This document shows positions 21,034 to 44,669 of a stretch of 58,581 bases of DNA, one piece after another. The stretch's first letter is position 1, and every line of letters begins with the position of its first letter. The translations under genes were made by a program, and so were the position numbers. Source of the DNA: a virus (Duplodnaviria; Caudoviricetes); IMG/VR virus record IMGVR_UViG_3300004807_000026, positions 1 through 58,581 of that record. One strand, given 5' to 3'. The notes under the pieces were generated by a model. The model did no database searches and was not told where the DNA came from. It saw only the letters and a program-made list of their open reading frames with translations.

Positions 21034-21294
21034 TTAGGGATAGTTAATAGTAGTTGTGTAGGATACTGAATTTGCGGAAACCGTTAAGTTGCTGTTGGCT
21101 GCTTGACTGTTTGTCAGAATATCCGACCGAGATTGAGACGTACCACAAACTACGCACGGTAAACACGTTCCGGAAGGAAGATTGGGGATTGGAACCGATG
21201 AGTAGACAGGAATGACGCCATCTTGACCGTACGGGCTACCGAATAGGTTAGAAAACCCGGTTCCTACATACTGTGAATCGGTTATTGATGGCAT
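21034..21294 (-). CDS. small virion-associated protein with CxxCxxC
   Basis: GTCLPCVVCG; Ser/Thr-rich. Confidence 0.5.
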   Translation of the reverse strand: MPSITDSQYVGTGFSNLFGSPYGQDGVIPVYSSVPIPNLPSGTCLPCVVCGTSQSRSDILTNSQAANSNLTVSANSVSYTTTINYP

Positions 21295-21296
21295 AA

Positions 21297-23420
21297 TTAG
21301 CAGTGAGTTGCGAGTCCTTTGGCGATAACTTTAGCCTCATTCAGCGCCATGTTGTACGCTACCGATTCAGCGTCGGTATATGATACGTAAGAAGTAACAG
21401 AGGCAGTTGCTGAGACGTAGATGATGTTGCCTGATGTAGCACACGTAGTGGAAGCTCCCGCAGTTTGAGTGGAAGTATAGGCGACCTCCTGATATGCGGG
21501 ATCTTCTTGAGGGGCGGGCGGAAGATTAACGAGGATACTGGAACCGTTTTCTCCTACCACGCAATATTCATTCTCGTTGGAATTCGGATTGCCAATTGAC
21601 TTCTCCGACCAAGGATCCATGAACATGCGGACGGCTTCGACGCCAAATTCTCCGCACCATTCGATGAGGAAACTAAATGCCTTGTCCACATCGAGTGTCA
21701 GGTTGGACTCGCACGATTGAAGTTTGACGTTTCTCTGTATGTTCTCGGTTGTCAATCGTCGGTACTGAGTGCTCAGGAACCCAAGGTCAGCAATGGCATC
21801 AGCAGAGGGACTGTACGCATATTGGTACGCTTCAGTAGCTGCCAGTAACCGGGTACTGAGTATCGGTGTGTACGCTCCCTTGCTACCGCGGAAAGATACC
21901 GTCACATCGACAGTACCACCGACTTGCATGCACTCGATTTCTCCGTACACAAATTGCTTGTGATCAAAACCGTCGCCTAGAAGTGCGGTCTCCATCTGAC
22001 AGTAAATCCTGTTGTAGTATTCGGTCGTTGTGCCGTCACTATTGATCGACAAGACCGTATCGTATCTTTCCGGGAGGAAAGACTCCCACAGGTGGTTGTA
22101 AGAACCGTCGTTGGTCGGCGCGTAATCAACAGAAAAGTGAAATGCCCGGGGAGTTCCATCAATCACTCCGGTAGTCCAAATAACCGGGTGCGTGCCGTTC
22201 CAAACTCCCGCCCATGCGGGTGACCTCGATTGGTTCCACTCGGATGCTGGCGCGTAATCCAATATCATCGTGGCACTGTTCAAGGTCTCCAAGTACGGGA
22301 TGCTATACAATAGGTAATTCTCAAACGACACCGCGCAGATCCCTGTGTAATCGGGTGCCATGTACCTCTTGGCGCGAGCCATCTCGACGTCCTTGTACAG
22401 AACTTGGGAGGATAAGTAAGCGGAGGCAGCGACGTCGGCTGAAATAAGACCTCCCTGTGAGTACCACCACATCATGCCCGCCTGAAAAGCAATACTGTTC
22501 CCGGCAATACACCCGATGTTGGGGTAAAGCGTTGTCACAAAATTCTGCACTGTCGTCCATTGCGTACGATCAAGAATGCCGCTTGAAATTGAGTATGTCG
22601 TGCGGTCGGAAAAGACGTACAGCTTCGTGTCGTTGTTCTGACCAATGTAATCAACAAGCGCCGTTATGGGACGTGCGAAGCTAAAGTCTCCTCGGGAGAC
22701 TCCTGACTGACGCTCAAGCCAACTCAAAGGATTACCAAGATCAGACGCCAGCACAATGTTGCCAGCAGCGACCCATAGACGGTTGCCTGAGTATGCCATC
22801 CACGTCCCGGTAGGAATCGCAGCAGACTGTCCTCCGATTGTGTCGCTACCGTCCCAATAAGCAGGCGCTGAGATCCCATCCTGAATCATTACCAATCGGT
22901 GACTCGGAGTAACCGTTACATTTCCCCCGGATGAAACGCTAGCCGATTGAGTCGCTACGCAAAAGTGAACCTGCTTGACGTTGGGATCCATCTGAATCCC
23001 GGTAAGTTGATAGTCAATCCATGCCTTGGGCTGAGTCAGAGGAAACGGAGAGAAATAGACATTGCCGTCAACGCAAAATACAATGTACGAGAGTTCGGTC
23101 GCCGAGGATGGCGTGCCGTCGTAGTTGTAAATTGTCTGCGCGGTATTGGTGACAATATTGTTCAGCGTTGTGGACGTCGCAGCGGTATAAACTTTATTAG
23201 CGTTGAATACTAATCCACCTTGGAAATTGCCTTTAGGCAAAGACAGTCGCATCGCCTGACCGGGGCGGGTTTGCACAATCCCGCCGCGTATGGACGTGTT
23301 AACTCCCCACTTGAATTGATCTTCCGGGAGACCCCAAGCATTCCGCACTGAGTTGACACCGTGCATCCATCCCGCGGAGGTCTTTTGCATCCTCCCCGAG
23401 GTTATCGAGGGAGACTTCAT
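21297..23420 (-). CDS. tail tubular/nozzle protein (T7 gp12/P22 gp10-like)
   Basis: 707 aa from MKSPSIT; beta-rich; N-terminal GxN...RPG and internal NRLWV motif; follows the adaptor-like gene. Confidence 0.65.
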   Translation of the reverse strand: MKSPSITSGRMQKTSAGWMHGVNSVRNAWGLPEDQFKWGVNTSIRGGIVQTRPGQAMRLSLPKGNFQGGLVFNANKVYTAATSTTLNNIVTNTAQTIYNYDGTPSSATELSYIVFCVDGNVYFSPFPLTQPKAWIDYQLTGIQMDPNVKQVHFCVATQSASVSSGGNVTVTPSHRLVMIQDGISAPAYWDGSDTIGGQSAAIPTGTWMAYSGNRLWVAAGNIVLASDLGNPLSWLERQSGVSRGDFSFARPITALVDYIGQNNDTKLYVFSDRTTYSISSGILDRTQWTTVQNFVTTLYPNIGCIAGNSIAFQAGMMWWYSQGGLISADVAASAYLSSQVLYKDVEMARAKRYMAPDYTGICAVSFENYLLYSIPYLETLNSATMILDYAPASEWNQSRSPAWAGVWNGTHPVIWTTGVIDGTPRAFHFSVDYAPTNDGSYNHLWESFLPERYDTVLSINSDGTTTEYYNRIYCQMETALLGDGFDHKQFVYGEIECMQVGGTVDVTVSFRGSKGAYTPILSTRLLAATEAYQYAYSPSADAIADLGFLSTQYRRLTTENIQRNVKLQSCESNLTLDVDKAFSFLIEWCGEFGVEAVRMFMDPWSEKSIGNPNSNENEYCVVGENGSSILVNLPPAPQEDPAYQEVAYTSTQTAGASTTCATSGNIIYVSATASVTSYVSYTDAESVAYNMALNEAKVIAKGLATHC

Positions 23421-26400
23421 TAGAAGTAGAATTGGCACCCGTCAATGACAGGATCTGTCCCGTCACCGTACGTGATGTTGTTGATCTGAGGCGGATTGAA
23501 CGCATGCCCGTCCATGCTGTTCTGCTGATTCTTGAGGTAACTCATTGCCATTGCCCAGTACTTCGTGGCCTGATCCATGAAATCTTTATCCTCTAGGTCA
23601 ACCGCGTGAACAGCAGCGATAATTGCCCGGGTCTGCTCCAGCGGGATGTAGTCGTAGATGCTCGTGATGGTAGGAGCTTTCACCCGGTACAGGATGCGAG
23701 CCCACGCGCATGATTGACCGATCTTGATCCTGCGATACATCGGATTTGTCTCACTGGGGTGATACTGACCGATCAAGGTCATGTCGTTCGTGCGACCGCG
23801 GTCGAAAGCATAGAGACTGACGTACCCATCGGTCAGTGGTTTGTCGATGTGTTGTACTGACTTGACAACGACCGCGGTTACTACTGCGTCCACAAAGAAT
23901 GTTGACTCTACCGTATTTCCTACGGATGAAAAAGTCTGCAATCCAGTGATTGAACTTGGAGTAGTTGCGTGTGCGTATGTGTCAAACAGTTCAAACGTAT
24001 TGTTGTCCAACCTACGGATGTAGTACGGAACATTGCTAGGCAATACTGTTCCACTATGCAGCTTGGGCAGTGAGTCTCCGGTATTAGCCCGGACAAAAAC
24101 TTCTGTCCCGGTTTCGTACATTGATTCAGAGGCTACAATTGAAGAAAGAGATGGAATTGACACGTCCGATTGAACAGTCATGTACAATTGACCAATTGGT
24201 AACTCATTCGCATTTCCCGATGGGGTACCAGTTAGAGTAATTGCTCCTCCACTTATGTTTCCAATTGTCCTAGTCGCAGTTTGATCCATCCAAGAAGGAA
24301 CCAATCCCGCCGAGGTAAATATCACATTCTGACCAACAGCAAGATTTGATGTTGAGCTAGGTACTATCTGACTTCCAAGGCAGACAACTCCACCAACTAG
24401 GGGGACAACATAATAACCTTGACCTGTTCCTAGTGTTGTAACGGTTATCGAGGGAGGTAGAGAAATTTGAACTGTCGGAACTCCAGAATATCCGCTGCCT
24501 GCTGAAACTTTTACCAACGAAAATATAGAACCGTCGATACTGTTTATAAAACCTACATACGAAGCTCCTGTTCCATTTCCTGTAATAACAAGTGAGACGG
24601 CTCCGGGAGTAATCACACATCCCGAGCCAGTAGTAAAACCAGACACAGTACCAAGAGTTAAAACGGATGACTTAGTGTACCCAGTACCTGCTGTGGTTAC
24701 ATTTACCGATTGAACAACACCGCTAGAGTTAACTACTACTGTTCCAAGCGCTCCGGATCCTTGCCCCGTTGAGTCTACAATTGGTACGCTTGAATATGGG
24801 GATGATGCATACGCATACCCAGTACCCCCACTAAGTAAACCCAAATTTGATGCGGTTAAAGTTATACCAGATAGTATAGAAGTGGTGTTGGAAATATATC
24901 CCGATCCGGGATTTGTAATCGTTAGAGAAGATATTCCTGTGCTACTGATATTCGCAGTTGCCGTTGCAAATGTGCCATTGAACAAGAAGGCTTCTGTATT
25001 AGAAATTGGGAAGAGACCATAATTGACCCCAGATGATAAAGGAGCAGGAGCCAAGTAATCAGTCCCAAACTGGACAACGGTAGGTTCTGTATTAGTCGAA
25101 TTATATAGACCTGTGAAATCGCCTGCCCACTTTGTGGTATTGCTTACGCTTCGCCCTGCAACTGTTCCAGAAGCTGAGTTGAACGAGAGACCGAACGCAC
25201 GACTGATGACAAGGTAGAAAGTTCCAGACCCTGTATCTGTAATGTTTACAGCACTGAAGTCTGCATTCTTGACCGTAAAACTCGTTGCAGTGTCGGGTGC
25301 CTCGGCGCGGTAGGGAACTCCTGAGACAAGCGGAGAAGGCAATGTGCCTGTCGAAGAGAATTGCACAAAGACATTTGTAGACGGCGTAATTGTGACCGTA
25401 GGAGCTGAGGTGTATCCGCTACCCAATGACACGGGTGTGATTGCAGCCAATGTCCCATCGGAATTGATTGATGCGGTTGCAGTAGCACCAGTCCCTCCTC
25501 CACCAGTTATTGTGACTTGAGGAACCTGAGTATATCCAGATCCGGGATTTTGGATGAAATAATTATTTACTGATGTGTATTGCGCCAAAGTATATGCCGT
25601 TGCAGCAGTACTGTGTGATCCCGTAATCGTAACTCTTGGAGGAAAAATATACCCCGTACCACTTTCTTGAACCACTATACTAGTTATTACTCCAGACCCC
25701 ACTGTTATAGCTGCTTGAGCACCCGTACCTAATGGCTGCAAAGTTATCGCGCTGATGTTTCCTGTAGAGTTTACAGTTGCTGTGGCTACTGCACCATATC
25801 CTCCACCACCTGTAATAGACACAATTGGCGGATTAACGGTAGAATATCCTGTACCTGCAGTCGTAGGGACAATTGAAGAAATATATTTGTACCCGGTAGC
25901 GGAATCCGTCTGAAGCGTGACACTTCCCGACCCAAAAGTTGCGGGTGTTCCTGTGTATCCAACTGGAGGTATCAATGTAACTGTTGGTGCACTTGTATAT
26001 TGATAACCTCCAACATCACTAAAAGATATTGTCGGCGTCGTATACCCTGTTCCACCGGAAACAATGTTTACGCTAATTATACCCCCTTCGGGATAGGCAT
26101 TTACAATGGCTCCGCTACCAGAAGCAGGTGTTGCAGCAAGATTAAAACCAGAAGCCTGAATTTGATTTGTGCTACCAACTACTGCCGTTGCAGGTATCAA
26201 CTTGGCGAATGAATTTACTCCTGACCCTGTAGTCGTGACAACAATCGGATTTTTCCCTGTTGCAGCGTCGGTCGAATTAGTGTGAATGCTAATCGACGTA
26301 GTGCTGATGACGTGGACAAAGTAATTGACATTGGTAAGTAATGGTTGTGGAAGAGTGCCACTAGTCACTGCCTCAACAACGTCTCCGGTAGAAAAGTAGT

Positions 26401-27988: not shown

Positions 27989-28000
27989 CGAGTGATTGGT

Positions 28001-28813: not shown

Positions 28814-29422
28814 TTAGTAAATGATGAAGCTAAATGATTCTGCAGTTGGGGTTGACCCGGCATAGGTAGTGACAGTGCAAGAACCAGTGCCGAGATTTAC
28901 TAAAGGCCCGTAACCAGCACCGCTTGTCTGATTAACAATTACCTTTGAAGTGGAAGAGATGCCAGAATACGTAATTGTAAAAACTCCCGAGGATCCTTGT
29001 GGCGCTACACTCAGTCCTGATGCGGGTAAGAAGCTACCCGCTACCAATGCACCCCCAGTAGTTACGTTTCCGTAGGCTTTAGGTACTGTCCCGGTAGTCG
29101 CAGCGGATCCGGTAGTCAACGCACGGAGGAGGAAGCAAAGGAATCCTTCTCCAGTATTGGGAGTAATTCCAAAAACCGATGTCGTTGACGTGGGGGCACA
29201 GGCTACTGTCCAGACGACCTGTCCATTTACGACACTCTTGGTGATCCCGCTAGTGGACGTAACGCCCGCCGGGATGTTTTGGAAGGCTCCGTATAGCGAC
29301 GTGGCAAGGTTGGTGATCTGAGACGTTACAGACTCAGGTGACACCTGTGGATAGGGGACGTCGGGTTGGCAGACGTAGCCATACCCGTACCCGTAAGATA
29401 AATCGCCATTGCAACAAGACAT
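28814..29422 (-). CDS. virion structural protein (fibre/decoration-like)
   Basis: 202 aa, MSCC start, Thr/Gly/Ser-rich; C-terminal beta domain ending FSFIIY. Confidence 0.55.
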   Translation of the reverse strand: MSCCNGDLSYGYGYGYVCQPDVPYPQVSPESVTSQITNLATSLYGAFQNIPAGVTSTSGITKSVVNGQVVWTVACAPTSTTSVFGITPNTGEGFLCFLLRALTTGSAATTGTVPKAYGNVTTGGALVAGSFLPASGLSVAPQGSSGVFTITYSGISSTSKVIVNQTSGAGYGPLVNLGTGSCTVTTYAGSTPTAESFSFIIY

Positions 29423-29467: not shown

Positions 29468-29734
29468 TCACACAAGTAGATTCATCACTACTTTTACGTG
29501 CGCCTCGTCAATCAGGTTCCCCAGATCCTCGACTGCCTCCTCGTCCAGATCTCGGCACCGGGCATGAATAATCTCGTGAGAAAGGCAATTCAACAGGCTC
29601 CCATTCGACTTACGCCTGAGCGTAATGACACGCGTCTCGTAATCGCACAACGCATCCCGATTCGGCCCGGGATTACCAAACTTGATCGTCCAGATGTGCC
29701 CAAGGATATTCATCTTTATGGATTTTTTCTTCAT
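29468..29734 (-). CDS. small zincin-like metallopeptidase
   Basis: LCD...R.I.L...LSHEIIHA (HExxH)...EEAVE. Confidence 0.7.
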   Translation of the reverse strand: MKKKSIKMNILGHIWTIKFGNPGPNRDALCDYETRVITLRRKSNGSLLNCLSHEIIHARCRDLDEEAVEDLGNLIDEAHVKVVMNLLV

Positions 29735-30138
29735 AGCGGAGGGCAAGGTATCTGGTTGTTGTGAATCATTGCATGACAATTTTTGCAGACAAGGACGCAC
29801 TTTTTTATTTCAGCCCAGAGTTTATCAATGCTCACTCCCCGGCGGGCGGATATCGTAAAATCCTTCTCATCCGGGTTCACGTGGTGCCAATCGAGGGAGC
29901 TTAAAGATTGGTTGAAACCACACGATTGACACTTACCCCCACGACTGTTTTTCAATTCCCTATTACTACTATTCCTTCTTTCTCTTCGATACTCCTGTCT
30001 CCTCTCCTTGCTCGTGTCACTTACAAAATAAGAAATGGTAGACTTCGCACATCCCAGCTTGTGCTCTATTTCCCGGTAGCTCAGTCCCTGCTTCCGGAGC
30101 GCAAGGATCCTATCTTTCAACGGGGCAGGTTGGCGCAT
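29731..30138 (-). CDS. HTH-HNH homing endonuclease
   Basis: GLSYREIEHKLGCAKSTISY HTH; CQSCG...LDWHH...EIKKCVLVCKNCH. Confidence 0.85.
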   Translation of the reverse strand: MRQPAPLKDRILALRKQGLSYREIEHKLGCAKSTISYFVSDTSKERRQEYRRERRNSSNRELKNSRGGKCQSCGFNQSLSSLDWHHVNPDEKDFTISARRGVSIDKLWAEIKKCVLVCKNCHAMIHNNQIPCPPL

Positions 30139-30139
30139 A

Positions 30140-30364
30140 CTACTCGGGGAGTTCGTCGTCGTCGTGAGTATACAAACCCGCAGCTACCCACTGAGCGATG
30201 TGGTTCTGCAGGGCAAAGGCATTGCCTACCATGTACTCACCGTGCTTGGTCTTACCATCTTCCATCCATGATACAAACACCGCGACATTGGCACTGTCAA
30301 AGTGCTCTCCCAGCGTCCTCGCTGCATGCTCTAGTGGGATTAACGCTTTCGGAGTTGGGTTCAT
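30140..30364 (-). CDS. hypothetical protein
   Basis: MNPTPK start with ATGA overlap to the endolysin stop. Confidence 0.55.
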   Translation of the reverse strand: MNPTPKALIPLEHAARTLGEHFDSANVAVFVSWMEDGKTKHGEYMVGNAFALQNHIAQWVAAGLYTHDDDELPE

Positions 30365-34329: not shown

Positions 34330-34353
34330 AGGGAAAGATGTTGTCTGACTAAG

Positions 34354-34383
34354 TGGGAGCCAGCGTATTCGCTGACTCCCACC
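34354..34383 (-). terminator. hairpin downstream of the major capsid gene
   Basis: GTGGGAGTCAGCG-AATA-CGCTGGCTCCCAC 13-bp stem; weak U-tract. Confidence 0.55.
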
Positions 34384-34399
34384 CGTGTCAAACTACTTC

Positions 34400-35794
34400 T
34401 TACAGACCAGTCGAGCTAGTCGAGCAAGGAAGCGGTGCACCATCGAATGGGCAGCGCTTGTAAGCAATCGCGCAGACGTTCTGCGGGCGGATCGGTTGGA
34501 TCGCACGCTGAATCTGATAGATGTGCTGACCGAAATCTCCGTAGAGGTTGCAGTCGTTGTCGCGGAAGTATGTCCACTCCAGTTCGCCCATAGCAAGCTG
34601 AGGAGCGAAACGGAAGGTTCCTTCTCCAACATACTGCTCGGGAACGAGACGCTTGAAAGCCTCGCCAGCGATGACGAAGGCGATCTCGTACGTCCCGGCG
34701 ACCCAAGTAGGATTGCGGCGTTGACCGAAACCGTTGGTGACCGTGGCCTGATAGATCGGGTTGATCACGTCAGGAATACCGGACGTAGGATCAATCGTGT
34801 TGAAGCGCAGAGGCTGCTGATCGATACCGAAGGCGAAGCCGCGGTAGCCCATGAACTGATAACCACTGATGGACTCCTCACCGAGGGTGAAGGATCCGGC
34901 GGTCAAGTACAGGAGGTCTTCCTTGACGTCGGCATCATTGCGGATGTTTTCGATAGCGTCGGCGCTAGCGAGAACTTGGAAGTACTCACCTTCCTTGGTG
35001 GCGAAAGGCTCGGCGAGCATCTCTTCACGCAAGAACGTACCGATGCGGTACAGAGTCTTGAAGTTCAGGGCACTGTCAGGATAGACACCATTGCTGGCAG
35101 TCTGGAACAGTGTGTTGATCTGCTGCATGTCCCCGGTGAGGTTCGTGGTGAACGACTGAGTGCTGTTCACGACGTACTTGATACCGGACTGGACAAGGTA
35201 TTGATACCGGATGTCAGCGTTGATCAGTTGGAGGATGGTCTTCTCAAGAGAGACCTGAGCCTGAAGGTAGCTGCCCTTGAATGCGGCGCGAGCTTGCTTA
35301 ACGCAAACACGCGGGCCTGCACCACGCAGGGTAGCAAGTTGGAACTGGTACTCGGTCGAACCTACGACGTCAGGAGTAGCACCAACACCGCAGAGGTTAA
35401 GATCTGCGACGAAGTTTGGCGCTGCAAGTGAAGCGTTAGGCACTGCCATTTCCTCAACGACCGAACGGACAACGTCGGAAACATTGGGGATCGTTCCACC
35501 ATCAATCGAGTTGATGTAGGGGCTCTTGCGGGCAAGAACCTTGGCGATCTGACCGATGATACGGTTGACGTCCTTGGAAGCGAAGTTTTGGACAGTAGCG
35601 AGAGGGATACAGTTGCTGCTGGAACCGCTGAAGTTTCCGTTACCGGAGACAAGAGAGGTTGGGCCAGAGGCAACGGATCCTGCTGCTGCAAGACCTGCGC
35701 TAGTTTGGTCGTAGGATCCGGGTTGAGTACCGGAAGCGTACGTGGTTGTGCCCGTAGGATACGCTGGGCCAGCAAATGGATTGGTATAGGCCAT
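34400..35794 (-). CDS. major capsid protein
   Basis: 464 aa; own promoter and downstream hairpin; strong C-ending codon bias; position after scaffold. Confidence 0.75.
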   Translation of the reverse strand: MAYTNPFAGPAYPTGTTTYASGTQPGSYDQTSAGLAAAGSVASGPTSLVSGNGNFSGSSSNCIPLATVQNFASKDVNRIIGQIAKVLARKSPYINSIDGGTIPNVSDVVRSVVEEMAVPNASLAAPNFVADLNLCGVGATPDVVGSTEYQFQLATLRGAGPRVCVKQARAAFKGSYLQAQVSLEKTILQLINADIRYQYLVQSGIKYVVNSTQSFTTNLTGDMQQINTLFQTASNGVYPDSALNFKTLYRIGTFLREEMLAEPFATKEGEYFQVLASADAIENIRNDADVKEDLLYLTAGSFTLGEESISGYQFMGYRGFAFGIDQQPLRFNTIDPTSGIPDVINPIYQATVTNGFGQRRNPTWVAGTYEIAFVIAGEAFKRLVPEQYVGEGTFRFAPQLAMGELEWTYFRDNDCNLYGDFGQHIYQIQRAIQPIRPQNVCAIAYKRCPFDGAPLPCSTSSTGL

Positions 35795-35823
35795 AATTTT
35801 GAGTTTGTTTCCCTGTCCTCACC

Positions 35824-36006
35824 GCTCGGTGGTTTTGGTTATGAGCGACGATGCCAAGGAGTAGACGGCATCCGGTTTCCCGGAAACGGTCTGAGTTGGT
35901 TTAGATTCTTTCGTCGCTCCCGGCACGCTGGAGCAATGGTTGCGGCCTGATCAGTGAATCTTTTGGCTTCCACCGAGCCACCTTCATACGGAGAAGGCAC
36001 ACCGAG
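35824..36006 (-). ncRNA. structured 5' leader of the capsid mRNA
   Basis: multiple hairpins (UCCGG-GAAA-CCGGA, GAUGCC/GGCAUC, CCUUC/GAAGG, AGAUUC/GAAUCU) and long-range CUCGGUG/CACCGAG pairing. Confidence 0.55.
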
Positions 36007-36015
36007 TTATTTGCA

Positions 36016-36044
36016 CTATTACGAAAAACGTAAGACGACGTCAA
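36016..36044 (-). promoter_or_regulatory. late-type promoter with GTCTTAC spacer motif
   Basis: TTGACG-tcGTCTTAC...-TAATAG (17-nt spacer). Confidence 0.6.
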
Positions 36045-36054
36045 CTATTTTTTT

Positions 36055-36705
36055 TTAATCAATCAATTTTAAGTGTATCTTGTTGTGTGGAAAATTTTTT
36101 CCGTGAAATCCAAAAGATGATTTTGGATCTTTAGTTGAAGAGATATCATTTAGAATAGACTCAACAGAAAATCTTGCCGCTACTTCTATCGAAGGAAATA
36201 CAATCCCTAAATTTACAAGAGTTTTTCGGTAATCGCTACATATGACTCTATCTTCCGGGGTCAATAAAGGATCTTCATTAAATGCATCCATTGGTATGAC
36301 TTTTGGAATTAATTCACACAACCGTTTGCTGCGAAGACTAAACCCACCGTTTCCAACCCGATAGTACCCATCAGGCCACGGTGCCCCAATGTAATCATAT
36401 TCAAGGAAAGAATGTTCCCACTTGTCAGGGTTAACTACAAACCCATCTGGATGAATCATTAAACAATGTGAAGTATCAAAGTACTTATGCAAATGGAATA
36501 CATGAAATTTATTAAAATCAGAAAAACTACCCAACAGATTACCCACATTCACGGTTTGAATGCCGGGATACTCAAAATCAAATGGAGATAATACAATGCA
36601 ACTGTTAAAAATAATTTTTTTGGCGCTATACTCGATAGCTTTACACGACTGTATCGGATCTAATCGATTGACCGAAATTGCGGTTACCCCCGAAAGATCT
36701 AACAT
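36055..36705 (-). CDS. DUF5672 family GT-A-like protein
   Basis: HCLMIHPDGFVVNPDKW...EYDYIGAPW...VGNGGFSLRSK...PED...FGFHG. Confidence 0.85.
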   Translation of the reverse strand: MLDLSGVTAISVNRLDPIQSCKAIEYSAKKIIFNSCIVLSPFDFEYPGIQTVNVGNLLGSFSDFNKFHVFHLHKYFDTSHCLMIHPDGFVVNPDKWEHSFLEYDYIGAPWPDGYYRVGNGGFSLRSKRLCELIPKVIPMDAFNEDPLLTPEDRVICSDYRKTLVNLGIVFPSIEVAARFSVESILNDISSTKDPKSSFGFHGKNFPHNKIHLKLID

Positions 36706-36710
36706 TTTTT

Positions 36711-37280
36711 TTATTTTTCAAAAATTCTTACATTGGGATTCAAATGATTTCCGATGGAAAAACCTTTTATCACCATAAGTTGATCCAGACCCGCATGACT
36801 AAAGATAGTCGAATGCCCAATCTCTGGATTTAAGTACCCGTGTCCTAGCTCAACCCAATTTGAAAAAGAAGTTTCAACAAACAAAACCCCCCTCGGATTG
36901 AGTAATGAAAAAATCTCGTCCAACTCACTATAGGGTTCACACGTATGTTCAATGACCTCAATCATTGTGACCACGTCAAACTTCTCACTAGGTAGTGTCT
37001 TATACTTTTCACTGAATGGGTCGTACCCGCTGGCAGGTATGCCCCGGGCGCAAAGGTAATCAACAAAATCTCCGCGACCGCACCCGTAGTCGAGCACTGT
37101 CCGGTTGCCTATGTAGTCAGCACGTCCACTGTGATTATCTTCCCTATTACCAGTGCCCCCGACCATATTTGATTGATCAAGGCACCCAGTAAATAATGAA
37201 CCTGTAGCGTCTACGTAATACGGAATACCCGCCACTTCGCAGGACACGTCCATTTTTTCTCCGGTAATAAAAGATCTCAT
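36711..37280 (-). CDS. class I SAM-dependent methyltransferase
   Basis: VLDYGCGRG, GYDPF, FDVVTMIEVIEH, LLNPRG. Confidence 0.9.
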   Translation of the reverse strand: MRSFITGEKMDVSCEVAGIPYYVDATGSLFTGCLDQSNMVGGTGNREDNHSGRADYIGNRTVLDYGCGRGDFVDYLCARGIPASGYDPFSEKYKTLPSEKFDVVTMIEVIEHTCEPYSELDEIFSLLNPRGVLFVETSFSNWVELGHGYLNPEIGHSTIFSHAGLDQLMVIKGFSIGNHLNPNVRIFEK

Positions 37281-37996
37281 AGGTCTAAATTACCGTTACT
37301 GCAGTACACTGCTCTATCGTAAGGCACGATACTATTTTTTAATGTATCGTGCGTCTCTTGAATCAAAGGTTTCATCAGTGCCGCGGCTATCCAGAACGAA
37401 CTAGACTGATTACCAACAAAGAAATCGGATCCTTCAATTGCTTCTGCAACTTGTAAACAAGATGGTGTCTTATAATACTCTACATTTCCAACTACCTCGC
37501 AAAAATCTTTGTGCTCATCCTCTGTCCCGGTAAACAATGCTCGGTCTCCAAAATGCTTTAGAACTTTTTTCCAAGGAAATTTTTCATTCCTGTACCTGTG
37601 GGATCTATTAAAAATTATTCGTCCTTTAGTTGCAGGATCCGCGTTAACTCGTATCCAAGGCTCTTGAATGTTCATGTGCCCATTTCTACGATCTACTAAG
37701 TTCACGTATCTAGCTTGTGAATCCATCAAAGAAATGTCGTCCCGGTAGCACTCTCTCCATCCTGTCATGTCAAAATCGATACTTCCGTAAGAACTAAAAC
37801 CCGTTTCGATACCTTGACTCAAAAGTAAAGGTTTCAAAGAATCGTACTTAAACCCAGACATAGGCAACATACCGGGATCATCGCGGATAATTAACGAAGT
37901 ACCACCTAGCTTTCTATAGATAGGCAAGAAAGCTATGATGTCACCTATGTGTCCGGTGTGGACAAAGGTTGTTCGCTTACGGAATGGGTCGTTCAT
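37277..37996 (-). CDS. GT9 (heptosyltransferase)-like glycosyltransferase
   Basis: HTGHIGDII; AEAIEGSDFFVGNQSS. Confidence 0.7.
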   Translation of the reverse strand: MNDPFRKRTTFVHTGHIGDIIAFLPIYRKLGGTSLIIRDDPGMLPMSGFKYDSLKPLLLSQGIETGFSSYGSIDFDMTGWRECYRDDISLMDSQARYVNLVDRRNGHMNIQEPWIRVNADPATKGRIIFNRSHRYRNEKFPWKKVLKHFGDRALFTGTEDEHKDFCEVVGNVEYYKTPSCLQVAEAIEGSDFFVGNQSSSFWIAAALMKPLIQETHDTLKNSIVPYDRAVYCSNGNLDL

Positions 37997-38549
37997 TAGT
38001 TAGAGATTCACGCATCTGATCGACGCGGGTTCCATCAGCATTCCGCTTAGCGTGGAACAATTTTGATTTTATGCCTGCAAGTGAGTTGTTAGTATTTTGT
38101 AATACATCGCTTTCTACAGGGTAATCGGGGTTATATGGGGGAAGTTCTAGGAACTTCTTAATCATATATCCCAGATGATCTTTCGACGCGTAGAACAAAT
38201 AGCAAGGCTCGCCGACAATCAAGTGTGGCCCGTCTTTCTCCATAGCTTCAGCCTCGTTCTTACTGAATCCGAGATTCGCAACGTCGTAGTCGCTCATCCA
38301 TCCGCCCCCGGCAGCGTGCAACGCACACCAACGGACGTACCGGGCAGCACGTGCTCCCTTGATGTTCATCTGAATCAAATGCCACATCAACTTGGTCAGC
38401 AGCGGACTAATCGTTGCGTGACTCTTGTTCAGCATCGTACACGTCCAACCATTTGCCTCCCATGACGCTTTCCAATGATTGGCACAACCAAACTCATCCC
38501 CTTGATTGCTACCGGGGATCGACTCGTAGTAGGCAAAGATCTGCTTCAT
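37977..38549 (-). CDS. DxD glycosyltransferase (GT32/Gly_transf_sug-like)
   Basis: WKASW...GW, RWCALHAAGGGWMSDYDV. Confidence 0.7.
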   Translation of the reverse strand: MKQIFAYYESIPGSNQGDEFGCANHWKASWEANGWTCTMLNKSHATISPLLTKLMWHLIQMNIKGARAARYVRWCALHAAGGGWMSDYDVANLGFSKNEAEAMEKDGPHLIVGEPCYLFYASKDHLGYMIKKFLELPPYNPDYPVESDVLQNTNNSLAGIKSKLFHAKRNADGTRVDQMRESLTNERPIP

Positions 38550-38550
38550 C

Positions 38551-39612
38551 CTAGTACGTCTTGAATCCTACGTGAAAGACTGGCAACCCAAGATCCACGT
38601 GTGGTTGGTGCCCGGCTTGCTTTGCTCTGAGACAGAATGACACATCTTCTCCGCGGGCACTATCGAATGGTCTGAAGTAGTCGTACGTGTAGTCGGGAAC
38701 GTCAATCTCCAACGAATCCTTGAACGTCTCCCGGATGTCTTCAAATACCTTGCGGTGAATGAGCATGCAGCCAGTGCCTACCCAATCCACGGGAACTACT
38801 GCGTCCTCGTACGCCTTTGCCCGGGGAGCAAGTTTGGGATCCGCGCACATGATAGCGCCTCCCTCCTGCCTTCCAAAGTAAGCGGCACCAACAATCGTCT
38901 TGTTTGCTCCGATCAACCTATGGAGGACGTGCCTCTGCAATGGTTGATCGAGGATTGTACGTGCCCCGGCTACCCAGTACCGGAACCATGCGGGTCTACC
39001 GATGGACGGTATGATGTCGTCATCCATCATCAGTAACCACTTGGCGTCGGTCTCCAAGAACTTGTGTGTAAGACGATTGCGAGAGTGCTCGATCTTTGCG
39101 TCGCCAATCGACATGTCGAACCGGATCTTGTCCCGGCCAAAGTCCAGTGCCATCGCTACGTTCACAGCAGCCGTCACCGGGTTACTCGACTTGTACCAAG
39201 GCCACCCAACAAAAATATCTCGTCCTTCAAACTCACACCTGTACGAGGGCAATCCCTCAGTGCTGCGAGTCTCGACTACGGGATTGTGAAAGTCAGGTTC
39301 ACTTTGGATCGGCTCTTTTGTGAACTCCACTTTAATTTCCTCGCTAGCCTTGGTTGCCCTTGGCTTTCGCGGCTTGATCGTTACCTTCGGCTGCTCAACG
39401 GGCTCAGGAGCTACGACTGGCGCTTCTTCGACCGCGGGCTCGATGACTTGCGGGGAGACAACAGATACCGGAGCAACGTCACCGTAACGGTTCTTAGGAG
39501 CGACGGGCTTGCCTCCCTGCAACATTGGCAGAGGTTTGCTTGCGAACGGATTCGGCGATGCGAGCGCGTCGGTTGTGACTCGCTCCATCCTTGCGATGAG
39601 AGATTCAGCCAT
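38551..39612 (-). CDS. GT2/GT-A glycosyltransferase with disordered N-terminal extension
   Basis: SRNRL..KFL...WLLMMDDD, VGTGCMLIHRKVF, GEDVSFC..A...G, HVG. Confidence 0.8.
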   Translation of the reverse strand: MAESLIARMERVTTDALASPNPFASKPLPMLQGGKPVAPKNRYGDVAPVSVVSPQVIEPAVEEAPVVAPEPVEQPKVTIKPRKPRATKASEEIKVEFTKEPIQSEPDFHNPVVETRSTEGLPSYRCEFEGRDIFVGWPWYKSSNPVTAAVNVAMALDFGRDKIRFDMSIGDAKIEHSRNRLTHKFLETDAKWLLMMDDDIIPSIGRPAWFRYWVAGARTILDQPLQRHVLHRLIGANKTIVGAAYFGRQEGGAIMCADPKLAPRAKAYEDAVVPVDWVGTGCMLIHRKVFEDIRETFKDSLEIDVPDYTYDYFRPFDSARGEDVSFCLRAKQAGHQPHVDLGLPVFHVGFKTY

Positions 39613-39615
39613 AAA

Positions 39616-40935
39616 TTATTGCCCAGCTTCATCAAGACCAAAGTCAATCGCGTCGGAGGTAGACATCTTGAGTCTGTCCGCCATCGACGTGGATTTCCGC
39701 GAACTCTCAGGAGTCGGGTTTGCCTTCGGGATCCTCCCCGCGTTCTTTAGACTATTGTTCTCAGCCTGCAATCGCTTCAGCTCAGCCTGCATCTTGGAGA
39801 TGGAACTCTGTTCCAGTCTCAGTTGCTCGGACAGGACGTGACTAGCAACCGCGGCAGCAGCAACCTCAGACCTCTCCTGTGGCGTCGTCGGCCACAGTGC
39901 CGCGTTGAATCGCTTCGACAGTTCGGTGACTGCAGCGTTGTGCTTCTGAATCTCGGCACGTTCCTCGGGACTTGACGTCGGCTTTATCTCCCGGAAGTTT
40001 GCCCAAGGAATGTCCTTGATGATCTGATTGGTGTGCTCCTGAATGATCTTGTTCTGCTCGTAGAACTGCTCGACCTTCTGAGTCTCACGCTGACGCAAGA
40101 ACTCCTCTCGCTTCTCGGCAGTATCTCCAATCTCCTTTTGGCGTCCCTCCTTGAGGTCGATGACATCCACAAGAGACTTCTTGAGCCTTTCGGAATCGGT
40201 AAGGTCTAGTTTGTCTAGTGCTTGGGTCTTCCACCACTGCTGACTGATCTTGTCCGGGCCTCCTGCCTTCTCAATAGAACTGATGACGTCGTCAGACGCG
40301 CCGTTCTTCTTGAGTATATTGTAAATGTTCTCCTTGGCGGATTGGATGGGCAAGTCGTACTTGCTCTTGAAGTCAGGGTCATTTTCAGTATCAAATATAG
40401 CGCGGAACTTCTTTAGCTCCTCGTAATCGGGAGGTGTCTGCGTGGGAGTTTGTTCGACCTGAGACAACTTCTGACGAAGCTCCTCTGCCTCCAGTGCCTG
40501 TTTCTTGTACTGAGTAGCCGTCTCCTGCAACTTTTTCCAGTTGCTCTGGTTAGCCTCGGACAGATTCCTTGGCTGCTCAATGGCAGCAATTTCAGGATCA
40601 ATCTCTGGCTCCGCTGTAACGTCTGGCGTTATAGCTGCAACCTCTGGCTCAGGCTCAGGCGGAAGGTTACGCTCAAACTGACCGGGGTTCCCGGTAATCT
40701 CGTCAAAGATAGGATCCGAGGTGTCTCCACCCTTGTCATCCGGTTCACGCGGTGTCTCAGGGATTTGCGGAGGCTCGCCAGCGTAGATCTTCGTTGTGTT
40801 CGCCTCAGCCTCATCGAGCATCTTGTCGAGGAAGTCTAAGGTGTTATTGTCAACGCGGTCGGCGTCGAGTGAAGGAGCCCCCATGCGACCACTGGCTGCT
40901 GTTGACTCCGGTACTATGTTGTCGTTGTCTTCCAT
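39616..40935 (-). CDS. capsid scaffolding protein (putative)
   Basis: 439 aa, acidic disordered N-terminus, coiled coils, between portal and capsid. Confidence 0.65.
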   Translation of the reverse strand: MEDNDNIVPESTAASGRMGAPSLDADRVDNNTLDFLDKMLDEAEANTTKIYAGEPPQIPETPREPDDKGGDTSDPIFDEITGNPGQFERNLPPEPEPEVAAITPDVTAEPEIDPEIAAIEQPRNLSEANQSNWKKLQETATQYKKQALEAEELRQKLSQVEQTPTQTPPDYEELKKFRAIFDTENDPDFKSKYDLPIQSAKENIYNILKKNGASDDVISSIEKAGGPDKISQQWWKTQALDKLDLTDSERLKKSLVDVIDLKEGRQKEIGDTAEKREEFLRQRETQKVEQFYEQNKIIQEHTNQIIKDIPWANFREIKPTSSPEERAEIQKHNAAVTELSKRFNAALWPTTPQERSEVAAAAVASHVLSEQLRLEQSSISKMQAELKRLQAENNSLKNAGRIPKANPTPESSRKSTSMADRLKMSTSDAIDFGLDEAGQ

Positions 40936-40938
40936 AAA

Positions 40939-41187
40939 TTACATTGCGGTAAAACCGCTGGACGATGCGTCGTCCTGCTTGCGTTCAACAATTGAGAGTT
41001 GTTTCAGCGTCTCGATTGCCTTCAAATATCCTTCCTTGAAAGCACCGCTCAGTGCGATGCCGTCAACCGTTGACTTCTCGGTAATCGTAATCACCGGAGC
41101 CGTTGAATCCATGTGTGCAAATAAATTTGCCCTATGTTTTAACAGGTAGTCCCTGAATGCCACCGCGTCAGATTGTTCCCAAGACAT
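40939..41187 (-). CDS. hypothetical protein
   Basis: 82 aa between portal and scaffold. Confidence 0.55.
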   Translation of the reverse strand: MSWEQSDAVAFRDYLLKHRANLFAHMDSTAPVITITEKSTVDGIALSGAFKEGYLKAIETLKQLSIVERKQDDASSSGFTAM

Positions 41188-41190
41188 AAT

Positions 41191-41673
41191 TTATTTTTGT
41201 TCTGCGTTTCTAATTCCCCGTTCGATCTCGTTTTCTTTCCTACCTGTCGTAATCACATCACGACCGTAGAAATTGGGTGTTGCTCTGAAACCGGGATTCG
41301 GTGCTGGAATTTCATTAGGTTGTGCCCAGACACTCTTGCCCTCAGCGATACGGTGTTTTGCAAAATCAACTGCCTTCGCCCGGATCTCATTCATCAACTT
41401 GGGGTTTTGACGATCCTGCTGATCAATAGGAATTGTCTGCAGGTACGTCTGCTCATTCAACGTAGTCGTTGGGATAATCTTGGGGATATCCATCTCCTTC
41501 CCGGTCACGTCTTCAGTTCCAAAAGACTGCTCGCCAGTAACTGCGAACCTTGGGTTTGGCGTAAGATCGGGAAGCAATCCCTTGTACCCAAGTGACTTCA
41601 TTGACCCATCCGCCCGGTAGGACGTTGGGTTGTTGGGATCTAAAGCGATAGGATTAGGATTGGCTCCGCCCAT
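41191..41673 (-). CDS. hypothetical protein
   Basis: 160 aa; RADGSMKSLGYKG...IP.I.PT...AVDFAKHRIAEGKS. Confidence 0.6.
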   Translation of the reverse strand: MGGANPNPIALDPNNPTSYRADGSMKSLGYKGLLPDLTPNPRFAVTGEQSFGTEDVTGKEMDIPKIIPTTTLNEQTYLQTIPIDQQDRQNPKLMNEIRAKAVDFAKHRIAEGKSVWAQPNEIPAPNPGFRATPNFYGRDVITTGRKENEIERGIRNAEQK

Positions 41674-41674
41674 A

Positions 41675-44080
41675 TTATTCTGCAGTTGCTGGTCGTGGAG
41701 GTGTAGCTACGTTCTGAACGTGTCCCGCTTGTGAAGGAATATTCATCGACATATCTTCCATCGGTGCTGCCTGTGGCTTGCTTGCCCTAGCATGATGCCC
41801 CCCGCCATGATGCGCTGCAGCAGGGACAACCTGTGGCATTGGTACCTTGGCGTGGCCTTGCGTAAGGTGACTGACAGCTTCCTGCAGTCCCTTCTTGAAC
41901 GGTGCCAGTTGCTGCTTCTTTGCGCCCTTCTGCTCGGCCTGCTGCAAGTGACCTTGGAAGTGCTGCAGTGCTTTTGTGAACGGTGCGACCATCTCGGGAG
42001 TCAATCCTCCGGGAGGAGCGTTTTGGATCACTGGGAACAACTTCTGAGCCATCGTCTGAATGTGAACCATGTCGTTATCCCTTGGGGAGATAGGTACTTC
42101 CTGACCCGCCAAGATGCTCTGGAGTTCCACAATCTGCTGACGTGTCGCCTCAATTGCCAGTGCCTCGACCTGATCCTTCGGAAGGATGAGTGCGTTAGCC
42201 TTAGCCTCACCTACCTTGTACGAGAGATCCATCTTCAGCATCTCGTCTTGATTCACGTTCGGGTTGCCCGAGTACCGCTGAACCACAAGATCAAACAATT
42301 GCTGATCGTTAGCCGTCGTATCCGGAAGCAACTCGCTTGCGGGACTATAAGCCATAAGGAGAATATCAGAAGGAGGTACATTCCTTTCCAGCATCTGAAG
42401 ACACGCATGGATAGCGTCTTCATCCAAGTGCTCGTGAACCTCAAAGGGAACCAAGAACTTAGGAAGATCCATGCCGCTACGGTCAAAGGCATCCACTACC
42501 TCGCGACGTGCCCAGATAGCCGAAGGCTCAACACTGCGAACCTGATCCAGCATGCCCTTCAAATCTGCTGCAGCCTTCACGTGCTCAGGGTGACAAATGC
42601 CTCGTTGCATCCGCTCAACACCCCTCGTGTACTGCTTGCTCCAGCGCATCAGGATACCCTGACGTAGTTGATTCTCAATCGCTGCGACCCTGTTAACTTC
42701 TGAAGCAGTCTGTCTCTGACCCTGCTTCTCTGTCACCGCACCGGGTAGAAACGTGCCAACCTGAATCTCAGCTAGACCACTTACGAACTGATCCAACTTC
42801 AGGAAGTCATCCACGTCCGCAGGCATCTGCTGCGGGATCACCTCGTAGCCTTCGGCAACGTAAGCAATAGGATGCATCACCGAAAGAGGTGCCGTATCAG
42901 GACGTGCATTTGGCCCGCGCTTCATTAGCAGCAGACCTTTAAGATACGTGTTGTCGATGACCAAGTTACGCGCCTTCTCAATGGCAACGTGTGTGTTGTA
43001 CAGATCTCGCCCGGCTCCGCGGCTTGACATCAGATTGCCAGCGCCAACCTCGACCGAGAACAAGGCAATTGCCTCGCTCATGTGATTGTAACGATCAAGC
43101 TGAGTACAGATCTCGTCGCCCGACTTGTCGTCAAACAAATACCGGGAGATCTTACCATGAGGCTCCCGAACTAAAATCTCCCCGAGCTCGACGTACTTGG
43201 CGTCGTTCTCATAGCTTGCTCCGTAGCTACCTTCCCGGATCCAGTCTTCGTACCTACGAGCATCGTCGTCGGCGTCCAATGTCCTGCCAGCAGGGATAGC
43301 AGCGTTGATGGAACGAACCAAGTTGTTGATGTGCCACCCAGCCAGTGCCGACATCTCGGGCTTCTCTAAGACAGGCAAGAGTTCGTAAATTTGATACCTA
43401 CGCTTGCGTCCCACAATAGGTGTTGCGTCTGTGTCCTGCGGCGTTTCGATACTGAAGAACGTGTAATCCTGACGCATGAACTCTGGCTTCCAGTCGCGAA
43501 GATCGTCCCACACCCATCCACAGAATCCAAAGCATGTATTCTCGTGAGTCGTTTGAGCTAGAAGATCATCGTGACCTTTCCATCCGCGGATACACTTTGT
43601 GATCTCTTCCCGGAATACCTTTGTCTTGTTCTCCGAGTCCGCTGACTCCAAGGGATACTTTGAAAAGGTAAGCGTCGGTGAATTCTCAATCACCTCGCGG
43701 AACGGAGGCTGAATCCTTGATACCATCGTCGAGAGGAACCCGGTAGGACGATTGCTCCTCCAATTCTGACCCATCGACTCCAACTTCTTCATGGAGTACG
43801 GGGGTTCGTTGTTCAGCTTCTTCTGGATGAGTTGATTCTTGCGATTCCTTTCCACGTTCTGCTGCTTCAACCTGCGGTAAGCACTGTGCGCTTGACGCGC
43901 ATCCTTGAACGTCCTGCGGACTTGAAGCGTGCGAGGATTGACCGTGTCGTTGGACGAATCGTCGGCACTGACAACGTCGAGATCTAAAATGCGAGGCTTG
44001 CTGTGCGGGTCAACAATTCTCGGTGCATGATCCGCGAAGCGATCAGTTACTTTTGGGTCTAGTGGATCGAAGTCGGCCAT
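41675..44080 (-). CDS. portal protein
   Basis: 801 aa after TerL; RQTASEV motif typical of podoviral portals; Gln/Pro-rich C-terminus. Confidence 0.75.
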   Translation of the reverse strand: MADFDPLDPKVTDRFADHAPRIVDPHSKPRILDLDVVSADDSSNDTVNPRTLQVRRTFKDARQAHSAYRRLKQQNVERNRKNQLIQKKLNNEPPYSMKKLESMGQNWRSNRPTGFLSTMVSRIQPPFREVIENSPTLTFSKYPLESADSENKTKVFREEITKCIRGWKGHDDLLAQTTHENTCFGFCGWVWDDLRDWKPEFMRQDYTFFSIETPQDTDATPIVGRKRRYQIYELLPVLEKPEMSALAGWHINNLVRSINAAIPAGRTLDADDDARRYEDWIREGSYGASYENDAKYVELGEILVREPHGKISRYLFDDKSGDEICTQLDRYNHMSEAIALFSVEVGAGNLMSSRGAGRDLYNTHVAIEKARNLVIDNTYLKGLLLMKRGPNARPDTAPLSVMHPIAYVAEGYEVIPQQMPADVDDFLKLDQFVSGLAEIQVGTFLPGAVTEKQGQRQTASEVNRVAAIENQLRQGILMRWSKQYTRGVERMQRGICHPEHVKAAADLKGMLDQVRSVEPSAIWARREVVDAFDRSGMDLPKFLVPFEVHEHLDEDAIHACLQMLERNVPPSDILLMAYSPASELLPDTTANDQQLFDLVVQRYSGNPNVNQDEMLKMDLSYKVGEAKANALILPKDQVEALAIEATRQQIVELQSILAGQEVPISPRDNDMVHIQTMAQKLFPVIQNAPPGGLTPEMVAPFTKALQHFQGHLQQAEQKGAKKQQLAPFKKGLQEAVSHLTQGHAKVPMPQVVPAAAHHGGGHHARASKPQAAPMEDMSMNIPSQAGHVQNVATPPRPATAE

Positions 44081-44084
44081 GTGC

Positions 44085-44669
44085 TTAGCGTTTTACCCAA
44101 CAGTGGTCAGGAAGGTTAGAAGTTGAGGACAGTGCGTCCTTCTCGATGAATACCGCGGTACGATTGTCGTGACGAAGCACGTGGCAACCTAAAATTCTTG
44201 GTGACGTAACCGTGTCCCGGGCTTGACGAACAGAAGCACACATGCGCTCGGTCGATACCACACAGGAAGAACATCCTCCCTTCCACTGCGCGTTGTTCGG
44301 GCAGCGGGCACAGATCCTTGCGCGAGATTCAGCCTCGTCGTCAGACACCAATGCAAACGGTTTGATCGACTGCTGCATGTTCTTAGCCCATGTCTGGATG
44401 TCATTCATCAACTGAGACCCAGCAGTAGGGTGATCAACACTCGTGATGCTCACCGTAACCTTGTCCACACCGTGGCAGAAGTGTGGGCTTCGTCCACATA
44501 GTTGACTGTTGATGTCACCAGTCACGTCTCCTACCGGGAGACCGTTCTCTGCACGGTACTTTTGCACGACGAGATAGAGATCGTCGAGTGTCGGAGCTTC
44601 CAACTTGACGTCACTTTGAAAAAAGTGCCACCCGCCGGGAGGAATCATGCCGTTAATCGGTTTTGCCAC
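44085..44669 (-). CDS. Cys-rich hypothetical protein
   Basis: GTG start VAKPING; PPGGW; LC..SPHFC; RARICARCP.N..W..GCSSC; C; GC; HCW. Confidence 0.65.
   Translation of the reverse strand: MAKPINGMIPPGGWHFFQSDVKLEAPTLDDLYLVVQKYRAENGLPVGDVTGDINSQLCGRSPHFCHGVDKVTVSITSVDHPTAGSQLMNDIQTWAKNMQQSIKPFALVSDDEAESRARICARCPNNAQWKGGCSSCVVSTERMCASVRQARDTVTSPRILGCHVLRHDNRTAVFIEKDALSSTSNLPDHCWVKR

Follow-up and report, generated by a model that had tools for sequence, protein, structure and literature searches.

Paired capsid cysteines and an optional Erv-like gene in an uncultured podovirus-like phage

The 58,581-base IMG/VR virus record IMGVR_UViG_3300004807_000026, analysed at its full length (the window), encodes a cysteine-rich major capsid protein and, at the end of its late region, a protein resembling the Erv/ALR family of thiol oxidases. 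With an estimated completeness of 93%, the window is a nearly complete genome, of about 58 kb, of an uncultured podovirus-like phage, and its minus strand carries every gene treated as real. A megablast search with positions 34000–47200 gave no match among 50,697 GenBank phage records, and neither the capsid protein nor the Erv-like protein found a tblastn match there; the phage belongs to an uncultured lineage with neither a cultured relative nor an annotated host among these records.

Along the minus strand, replication genes come first (DNA polymerase A and a DUF5906 primase-helicase-like protein), followed by the small and large terminase genes, a gene for a 187-residue protein with nine cysteines, the putative portal gene and two small open reading frames (ORFs). 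Next come a 439-residue putative scaffold, a block of glycosyltransferase- and methyltransferase-like genes and the capsid gene, and then the lysis genes, an HNH endonuclease gene and the tail genes. Five putative ejection proteins, the last a giant of 3006 residues, and the Erv-like gene close the late region (Table 1). Scaffold, nozzle and ejection protein are names given from gene order alone.

Table 1. Positions of the genes and features discussed, in window coordinates.
Feature	Position	Strand	Remarks
Erv-like two-domain protein	4602–5288	minus	228 residues
Erv/ALR-like C-terminal domain	4605–4892	minus	residues ~133–228
Cys174-Pro175-Cys176	4761–4769	minus	at the CxxC redox-motif position of Erv enzymes
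N-terminal domain of the Erv-like protein	4893–5288	minus	residues 1–~132
Protein directly upstream of the Erv-like gene	5278–6576	minus	432 residues, 8 Cys; no Pfam or PHROG match
Giant putative ejection (internal virion) protein	6952–15972	minus	3006 residues, 0 Cys (34.4 expected from base composition)
Putative ejection protein	15975–18074	minus	699 residues, 0 Cys
Putative ejection protein	18080–19006	minus	308 residues, 0 Cys
Putative ejection protein	19019–19570	minus	183 residues, 0 Cys
Putative ejection protein	19591–20673	minus	360 residues, 1 Cys (residue 7 of the longest reading)
CLPCVVC protein	21034–21294	minus	86 residues; C-x2-C-x2-C, Cys at 44, 47, 50
Putative nozzle/tail tube protein	21297–23438	minus	713 residues, 11 Cys; ends ..THC
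MSCC protein	28814–29422	minus	202 residues, 6 Cys
110-residue ORF	29468–29800
HNH endonuclease	29731–30138	minus	N-terminal helix-turn-helix, 7 Cys; inside the late region
Sulfotransferase-like ORF	31697–32605	minus
Major capsid protein, HK97 fold	34400–35794	minus	464 residues, 7 Cys: 62, 135, 164, 415, 441, 448, 457
N-terminal extension of the capsid protein	35621–35794	minus	~58 residues
Modification genes	36055–39612	minus	between scaffold and capsid genes
Glycosyltransferase-like ORF	38551–39612	minus	353 residues, DDD motif
Putative scaffolding protein	39616–40935	minus	439 residues, 0 Cys; role suggested by position after the portal
Putative portal	41675–44080	minus	801 residues, 6 Cys; named by size and position, no family match
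Pre-portal protein	44085–44648	minus	187 residues, 9 Cys from the Met at 44648 (12 in the longest ORF); between large terminase and portal

Cysteine pairs of the major capsid protein

An AlphaFold2 model of the capsid protein, built from 87 homologues, reached a mean predicted local distance difference test (pLDDT) score of 82.4 and a predicted template modelling score of 0.79. The model has the HK97 fold: Foldseek returned 329 matches at E ≤ 0.001, and all entries listed were phage capsid or virion structures, led by that of Pan3 (9vye, E 3.8e-12) and followed by those of N4 (9e99), GP4 and HK97 (1ohg). No Pfam or PHROG family matched the protein. The 353-residue ORF that follows the scaffold gene had been considered as a capsid gene and was ruled out; it is glycosyltransferase-like, whereas the 464-residue ORF has the HK97 fold. 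The N-terminal extension of the capsid protein is rich in Gly, Ser, Ala and Thr and is modelled with pLDDT below 50, and most homologues have 402 residues and start near residue 59, where the first conserved cysteine is about the fourth residue; the true start is uncertain here.

The original prediction had noted seven capsid cysteines, three of them near the C terminus, and this stands, with the three lying within the last 24 residues. Cysteine makes up 1.5% of the protein; the median over 606 reference phage capsid clusters is 0.212% according to a preprint (10.64898/2026.07.03.736451). Close homologues, 727 clusters at E ≤ 0.001 among 8000 candidates scored, retain these residues: each of the seven is present in 113–121 of the 122 rows of the close-homologue alignment, which includes the unrelated P0003 as one non-cysteine row per column. 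In a more diverse set, 176 matches were found and 150 listed; 86 of 380–470 residues were kept with the query, 64 shorter or longer ones were dropped, and the resulting 87 homologues reach about 20% identity. The capsid tree for the pair tests was built without the cysteine columns, and contrasts were taken on supported branches.

In these 87 homologues, Cys135 and Cys164 occur together in 76, are both missing from 11 and are never found singly. Each changes nine times on the tree, and all six independent contrasts run in the same direction (p = 0.031). For Cys448 and Cys457, 74 homologues have both, ten neither and three (0 and 3) a single one (median p = 0.0625). The N-terminal cysteine, at position 62 or in a neighbouring alignment column, is found together with Cys415 in 48 homologues; 17 and 3 have one or the other and 19 neither (p = 0.016). 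Cross-pairs, such as 135 with 448, give p values of 0.25–1, and Cys441 is not conserved (13 of 87). Moreover, the pairs vanish separately, 135/164 being lost where 448/457 is kept and vice versa, which argues against a single metal site of four cysteines and fits separate two-cysteine units better.

In the model, residues 135 and 164 flank a hairpin (146–159) and precede a long helix (173–202), a region that would correspond to the E-loop of HK97-fold proteins; 448 and 457 lie in the tail beyond the last strand. Judged by covariation, six capsid cysteines thus behave as three pairs, 135/164, 448/457 and 62/415, and disulfides in the capsid are probable. Three co-varying pairs across a large uncultured capsid family provide a testable prediction of covalent disulfide stapling.

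The Erv-like protein and its distribution

The Erv-like gene that had been proposed for this phage is present, as indicated by both a Pfam match and the fold of the model. Its start was placed at the Met at 5288 because a longer ORF beginning with GTG (4602–5435) overlaps the upstream gene. PF04777 scored 29.3 bits against a cut-off of 27.6, a narrow margin, and 29.9 bits (E 3.2e-8) in a second search; by sequence, the closest solved structure is pB119L of African swine fever virus (ASFV; 3gwl, E 2e-4). The AlphaFold2 model has a pLDDT of 93.6, and Erv/ALR enzymes take all of its 24 top ranks in Foldseek (E 2e-3 to 0.2). In a structural comparison with VIA, residues 133–228 gave Z scores of 13.3–11.2 for six Erv-family chains (13.3 for 3gwl, 12.2 for 3w4y, 11.5 for 1jr8), with Erv domains of QSOX and unrelated folds ranking below at Z ≤ 5.7.

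In place of the CxxC motif of the family, the protein has Cys174-Pro175-Cys176. Each of the two cysteines is found in 77 of 78 aligned homologue clusters, and all three residues are invariant in the 31 rows of alignment A2. Alignment to 3gwl and ALR sets Cys176 on the second cysteine of CxxC, with a spacing one residue shorter. Also invariant in the 31 rows are W143, E145, L146, H147, H179, H202, N203, V205, N206 and R208, of which W143, H147, H202, N203, V205 and N206 align with matching residues of 3gwl and ALR. The W/H pair on the first helix and HNxVN on the fourth are the flavin-contacting motifs of Erv/ALR enzymes. In the alignment the conserved residues sit where Erv enzymes hold the flavin, and binding of flavin adenine dinucleotide (FAD) is predicted from their placement.

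The N-terminal domain (residues 1–126 in the structural comparison) is separate and gives weak zincin-like matches at Z 4.4–5.4 (selecase at 5.4, YbeY and SprT-like proteins), below the caution line of the tool. It has a conserved Cys57 and occurs alone, as an ORF of 131–149 residues, in three relatives without an Erv domain (G002, G005 and G014). A homologue search with the Erv domain alone recovered mainly the same two-domain family, along with a fragment-like protein of 134 residues and one distant stand-alone protein of 132 residues. In the Erv-bearing genomes examined, the Erv gene follows the giant ejection gene at a distance of one to three ORFs. The 432-residue protein encoded directly upstream in the window was considered as a partner and set aside: it occurs in 8 of the 22 related records, and six of the eight near-complete Erv-bearing relatives lack it. 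Where present, it always adjoins an Erv gene or an N-domain-only gene.

A close relative of the capsid protein (77–85% identity in all but two) was found at 80 IMG/VR loci, 22 of them on contigs of at least 45.8 kb and 18 of these at least 90% complete. All 18 near-complete relatives carry capsid cysteines 62, 135, 164, 415, 448 and 457. By the Erv alignment, eight of them have the Erv domain, three the N-terminal domain only and seven nothing; PF04777 found no match at E ≤ 1 in the ten without the domain. Since the gene is found in eight of 18 relatives with the same cysteines, it is accessory. Conversely, nine further records with the two-domain protein, each at least 90% complete, all carry this capsid family, eight with the six cysteines and one without Cys415. 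The Erv gene is thus confined to this capsid clade in our sample and is optional within it, and the link between the two is weak. The genomes are mosaic.

These counts do not bear out the original prediction of a shell served by the Erv oxidase. It had named, as the outcome that would speak against it, that related phages with equally cysteine-rich capsids generally lack Erv, and this is largely what was found: the domain is in eight of 18, its presence changes at least five times on the capsid tree, and oxidase and cysteine-rich virion substrates are not conserved together. Cysteine-less capsid representatives (P0258, P0261) had no relative among the viral contigs searched. A first gene-family table had suggested that small cysteine-rich proteins track Erv; tblastn overturned this, as 15 of 16 genomes turned out to encode the CLPCVVC, MSCC and pre-portal proteins, irrespective of Erv. 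The 110-residue ORF alone stays skewed, being found in six of eight Erv-bearing genomes and two of eight others.

A Pfam scan of 125 ORFs from two Erv-less genomes, which covered ORFs of 55–1500 residues lying within stretch boundaries, gave no thioredoxin, Dsb or Erv family. In the window, 66 ORFs searched at E ≤ 0.01 gave no thioredoxin, glutaredoxin, Dsb or adaptor partner, although small or divergent ones could escape such a search. One record (G029; 94,385 bases; loci L165, L173, L233 and L240) is rated 100% complete, yet its two capsid genes and two Erv-like genes, which score slightly differently, are spaced about 60–62 kb apart; this suggests a concatemer or a chimera assembled from two related phages.

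Beyond this clade, the Erv alignment, run against IMG/VR, detected 226 relatives; 80 were retained, 26 of which match the Erv domain only and, without de-replication, represent about seven distinct types by ORF size. Eighteen of the 26 have Cys-x-Cys (CxC; CDC or CSC), seven the canonical CxxC and one neither, and a CGC motif also occurs among related viral proteins. At all 18 CxC loci, a same-strand ORF with 15–38 cysteines lies just upstream, of 433–471 residues apart from one truncated at the end of its contig. At the locus with neither motif, a 498-residue ORF with 50 cysteines follows just downstream, and none of the seven CxxC loci has a hyper-cysteine neighbour within 1.5 kb.

One of these records is that of a complete siphovirus of 39,357 bp with terminal repeats (G024; L225/L226), whose pair of hyper-cysteine and Erv-like genes recurs at 18 other loci. 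There the order is tape measure (750 residues, no cysteine), a 290-residue ORF, a 122-residue ORF, a 463-residue ORF with 39 cysteines in tail-tip position (the pair is at about 30093–31484 and 29758–29922 of the record), the Erv-like gene (138 residues, CSC type) and a metallophosphoesterase. The 463-residue protein has no Pfam match, and the capsid protein of this phage has just three cysteines. Because Erv-like genes, all but one of CxC type, stand beside proteins of 15–50 cysteines at 19 of 19 viral loci, a phage oxidase that serves virion proteins stays plausible.

Among 185,579 species genomes, only four loci matched the phage Erv alignment, three in bins of Pirellula sp. (L241–L243) and one in a Bacteroidetes bin (L244). 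Planctomycetota are thus a possible host lead for part of the Erv family; the host of the window phage itself is not set by this.

Cysteine content of the virion genes

The original prediction had contrasted cysteine-rich outer proteins with cysteine-free internal ones. We counted cysteines in the window ORFs against a background of 1.27%, taken from 34 other ORFs. The individual features that had been pointed out, namely the MSCC start, CLPCVVC, the His-Cys end of the nozzle and the nine cysteines before the portal, were all as described. As a general statement on external proteins, the claim is uneven: the nozzle (1.5%) is near background, the 1522-residue tail protein is cysteine-poor (0.39%), and five ORFs have no cysteine (those of 263, 117 and 188 residues adjoining the capsid gene and those of 129 and 136 residues in the tail region).

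The internal half of the partition is sharper. The putative scaffold is free of cysteine, as had been stated (p = 0.004 on the background), and so are four of the five putative ejection proteins; the 360-residue ORF departs from the claim by a single cysteine. Across the 4556 residues of the five, one cysteine is observed where 48.1 would be expected from their own position-specific base composition; at the background frequency, the probability of none in that length is 5.5e-26 (the observed number is one).

The partition is kept across the 16 genomes compared, in which the genes of relatives were called with a simple longest-ORF script. In each genome, the largest ORF (1879–4269 residues) occupies the same place in the late region and has 0–2 cysteines, although these giant ORFs did not cluster as a single family at the thresholds used. 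All 15 scaffold orthologues found are without cysteine. The 360- and 183-residue ejection families were found in 15 of 16 genomes; orthologues of the former have no cysteine, and neither do those of the latter, except for a 243-residue paralogue with one in three genomes.

On the outer side, nozzle cysteines 310, 368, 503, 576, 595, 626, 666 and 713 are kept in 13–15 of 15 orthologues (24–73% identity), and portal cysteines 325 and 496 in 16 of 17 family members. By tblastn, 15 of 16 genomes retain all three cysteines of the CLPCVVC protein, whether they carry Erv or not. Residues 1 to about 102 of the MSCC protein have tblastn matches in the same number of genomes; its first 100 residues or so form the N terminus of large tail-fibre-like ORFs in relatives, some of 1089–1366 residues with 21–27 cysteines. 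The pre-portal protein is kept with eight or nine cysteines in 15 of 16 genomes and contains a CxxC-x9-CxxC motif; it looks like a zinc ribbon, and a structural role is not established by this motif.

That the cysteine-free half would be expected in any case, as the original prediction allowed, is confirmed by counts in T7 and N4. In T7, gp15 (747 residues), gp16 (1318) and the scaffold gp9 (307) have none and gp14 one in 196; in N4, the virion RNA polymerase (3500), gp51 (644) and gp52 (150) have none. Large proteins that travel inside the head and exit through the tail thus lack cysteine in all three phages, with the roles in the window assigned by gene order and homology between its ejection proteins and those of T7 and N4 not established by sequence. 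The capsid proteins of T7 and N4 are cysteine-poor (2 of 345 and 0 of 401 residues), in contrast to 7 of 464 here. The cysteine-free half is therefore a generic feature for which no Erv is needed.

Further features of the late region may be mentioned. The modification genes comprise the 353-residue glycosyltransferase-like ORF, a PF13489 methyltransferase and a DUF5672 protein, and a sulfotransferase-like ORF lies further along; the 353-residue ORF and a 190-residue ORF of this block are core genes (15 of 16 genomes), and such a block suggests glycosylation of the virion. The HNH endonuclease gene is found in just one of 15 relatives, which suggests a mobile, homing-type insertion.

Interpretation and known systems

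Taken together, these patterns suggest the following mechanism. The outer proteins (the HK97-fold capsid protein, the putative nozzle and the putative tail-fibre anchor) carry conserved cysteines, and in the mature virion C135–C164, C448–C457 and Cys62 of the N-arm with C415 would form structural disulfides. The scaffold and the proteins that leave through the tail are free of cysteine, as in T7 and N4, and disulfide cross-links can therefore not hold them back. The Erv-like protein would act as a thiol oxidase that allows cysteine-rich virion proteins to become oxidised before lysis, while still in the reducing host cell; in relatives without it, virion oxidation would follow lysis and take place in oxygenated water. 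We regard this composite, in which the capsid has disulfides and an active but optional Erv oxidase aids cysteine-rich virion proteins before lysis, as about equally likely to be right or wrong. Of its parts, the Erv-like domain is probably an active flavin oxidase, as predicted from its fold and conserved residues.

Several observations weigh against this mechanism. The Erv domain is missing from ten of the 18 near-complete relatives that share these capsid cysteines, and its presence changes at least five times on a capsid tree of 19 genomes; some records marked as linear may simply miss the Erv region, and the Erv-less G003 is 91% complete. Across 16 genomes, no gene family or cysteine count clearly tracks Erv, and in the window the Erv gene has no hyper-cysteine neighbour. 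Because CPC replaces the CxxC of the family, activity is uncertain. The contrast tests rest on 6–9 independent pairs and on a FastTree topology. Finally, the preprint cited above (10.64898/2026.07.03.736451) describes conserved capsid cysteines of gut phages as mostly buried (83% of 47) and isolated, with one within bonding distance, so that conservation alone is weak evidence for disulfides.

This burial is an argument for a different account, in which the capsid cysteines are unbonded, serving in buried packing or as metal ligands, and Erv acts on some other virion or host protein or on the thiol redox balance of the host. An oxidase that is optional, unlinked to any capsid feature and joined to a distinct N-terminal domain, one that three relatives keep on its own, would fit such a role. 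However, strict pairwise gain and loss, as of 135/164 (76 both, 0 single, 11 neither), is unexpected for independently buried residues, and the independent loss of pairs speaks against one shared metal site; we consider this account unlikely. Less likely still is that the domain has lost oxidase activity and that its CxC form survives in a structural or binding role. In favour of this, 77 of 78 homologue clusters lack the defining CxxC, the Pfam score barely exceeds its threshold and the clade can do without the domain; yet both cysteines and the flavin-side residues are invariant in homologues down to about 43% identity, the CxC and CxxC forms of close viral relatives share the same C-terminal motif, and hyper-cysteine neighbours are tied to the CxC forms. 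Cys-x-Cys, moreover, can be redox-active, as is the CPC of Mia40. That Erv is a dedicated catalyst of capsid disulfides, in a poxvirus-like pathway required by a cysteine-rich shell, is the least probable account: the fold and the capsid pairs coexist in one genome, the gene ends the structural block and nine of nine further near-complete two-domain records carry this capsid family, but the domain is in eight of 18 relatives with the same cysteines, is cleanly missing from three in which its N-terminal partner stays, and has no thioredoxin-fold partner among the 66 window ORFs, nor is there a thioredoxin, Dsb or Erv family among the 125 ORFs of the two Erv-less genomes.

Extending the mechanism of optional, pre-lysis oxidation beyond the window, tailed phages, some of them linked to genome bins of Pirellula (Planctomycetota), might possess their own branch of the Erv/ALR family, many members with CxC, that makes virion disulfides in the bacterial cytoplasm, here for a capsid with three disulfides in each subunit and a cysteine-rich tail. 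This would be the first disulfide machinery of a prokaryotic virus, and we put it forward tentatively, as a possibility with the chances somewhat against it. If the phage enzymes are active, they would show how disulfide-rich particles get built in a reducing bacterial cell and add a Cys-x-Cys active-site variant to the Erv family. They would also provide an oxidase adapted to the bacterial cytoplasm for making disulfide-bonded proteins, a task for which yeast Erv1p has already been used in E. coli.

Erv-type oxidases are known from eukaryotes and from the large DNA viruses that infect them. The phage literature searched, with most subscription journals outside its coverage, contained no report of a phage Erv-type oxidase. 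In vaccinia virus, the E10R-A2.5L-G4L pathway, which includes a viral Erv-type oxidase, feeds disulfides to virion proteins in the cytoplasm. This pathway is mentioned in PMC10598087 and PMC13576161. The window differs from it in that no adaptor or thioredoxin-fold partner was detected among its 66 ORFs, the substrate is unassigned and more than half of the close relatives lack the oxidase. The poxvirus-like pathway of the original prediction thus overstates what is one optional component.

Disulfide-linked virions themselves have precedents among phages: Agrobacterium phage Milano (PMC10491603), 7-7-1, Pam3 and Jabs, and a siphovirus tail tube (PMC13576161), with structural proteins that cysteines cross-link or staple. 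The bonds in these phages were seen in structures, whereas those of the window are suggested by covariation.

The nearest structural counterpart of the window Erv domain is pB119L of ASFV (3gwl), which shares its helical-bundle fold (Z 13.3, root-mean-square deviation 2.2 Å over 92 residues, 27% identity); Erv1, Erv2 and mimivirus R596 follow at Z 11–12. The window protein differs from all of these in having CPC rather than CxxC and in its fusion to an unrelated N-terminal domain of about 126 residues, and from pB119L in belonging to a tailed bacteriophage, as an accessory rather than a core gene; its activity, FAD binding and dimer formation are putative. It shares with pB119L and the Erv family the conserved W..H and HNxVN-type motifs, and ASFV and the window phage both encode an Erv-like protein while assembling in a reducing compartment.

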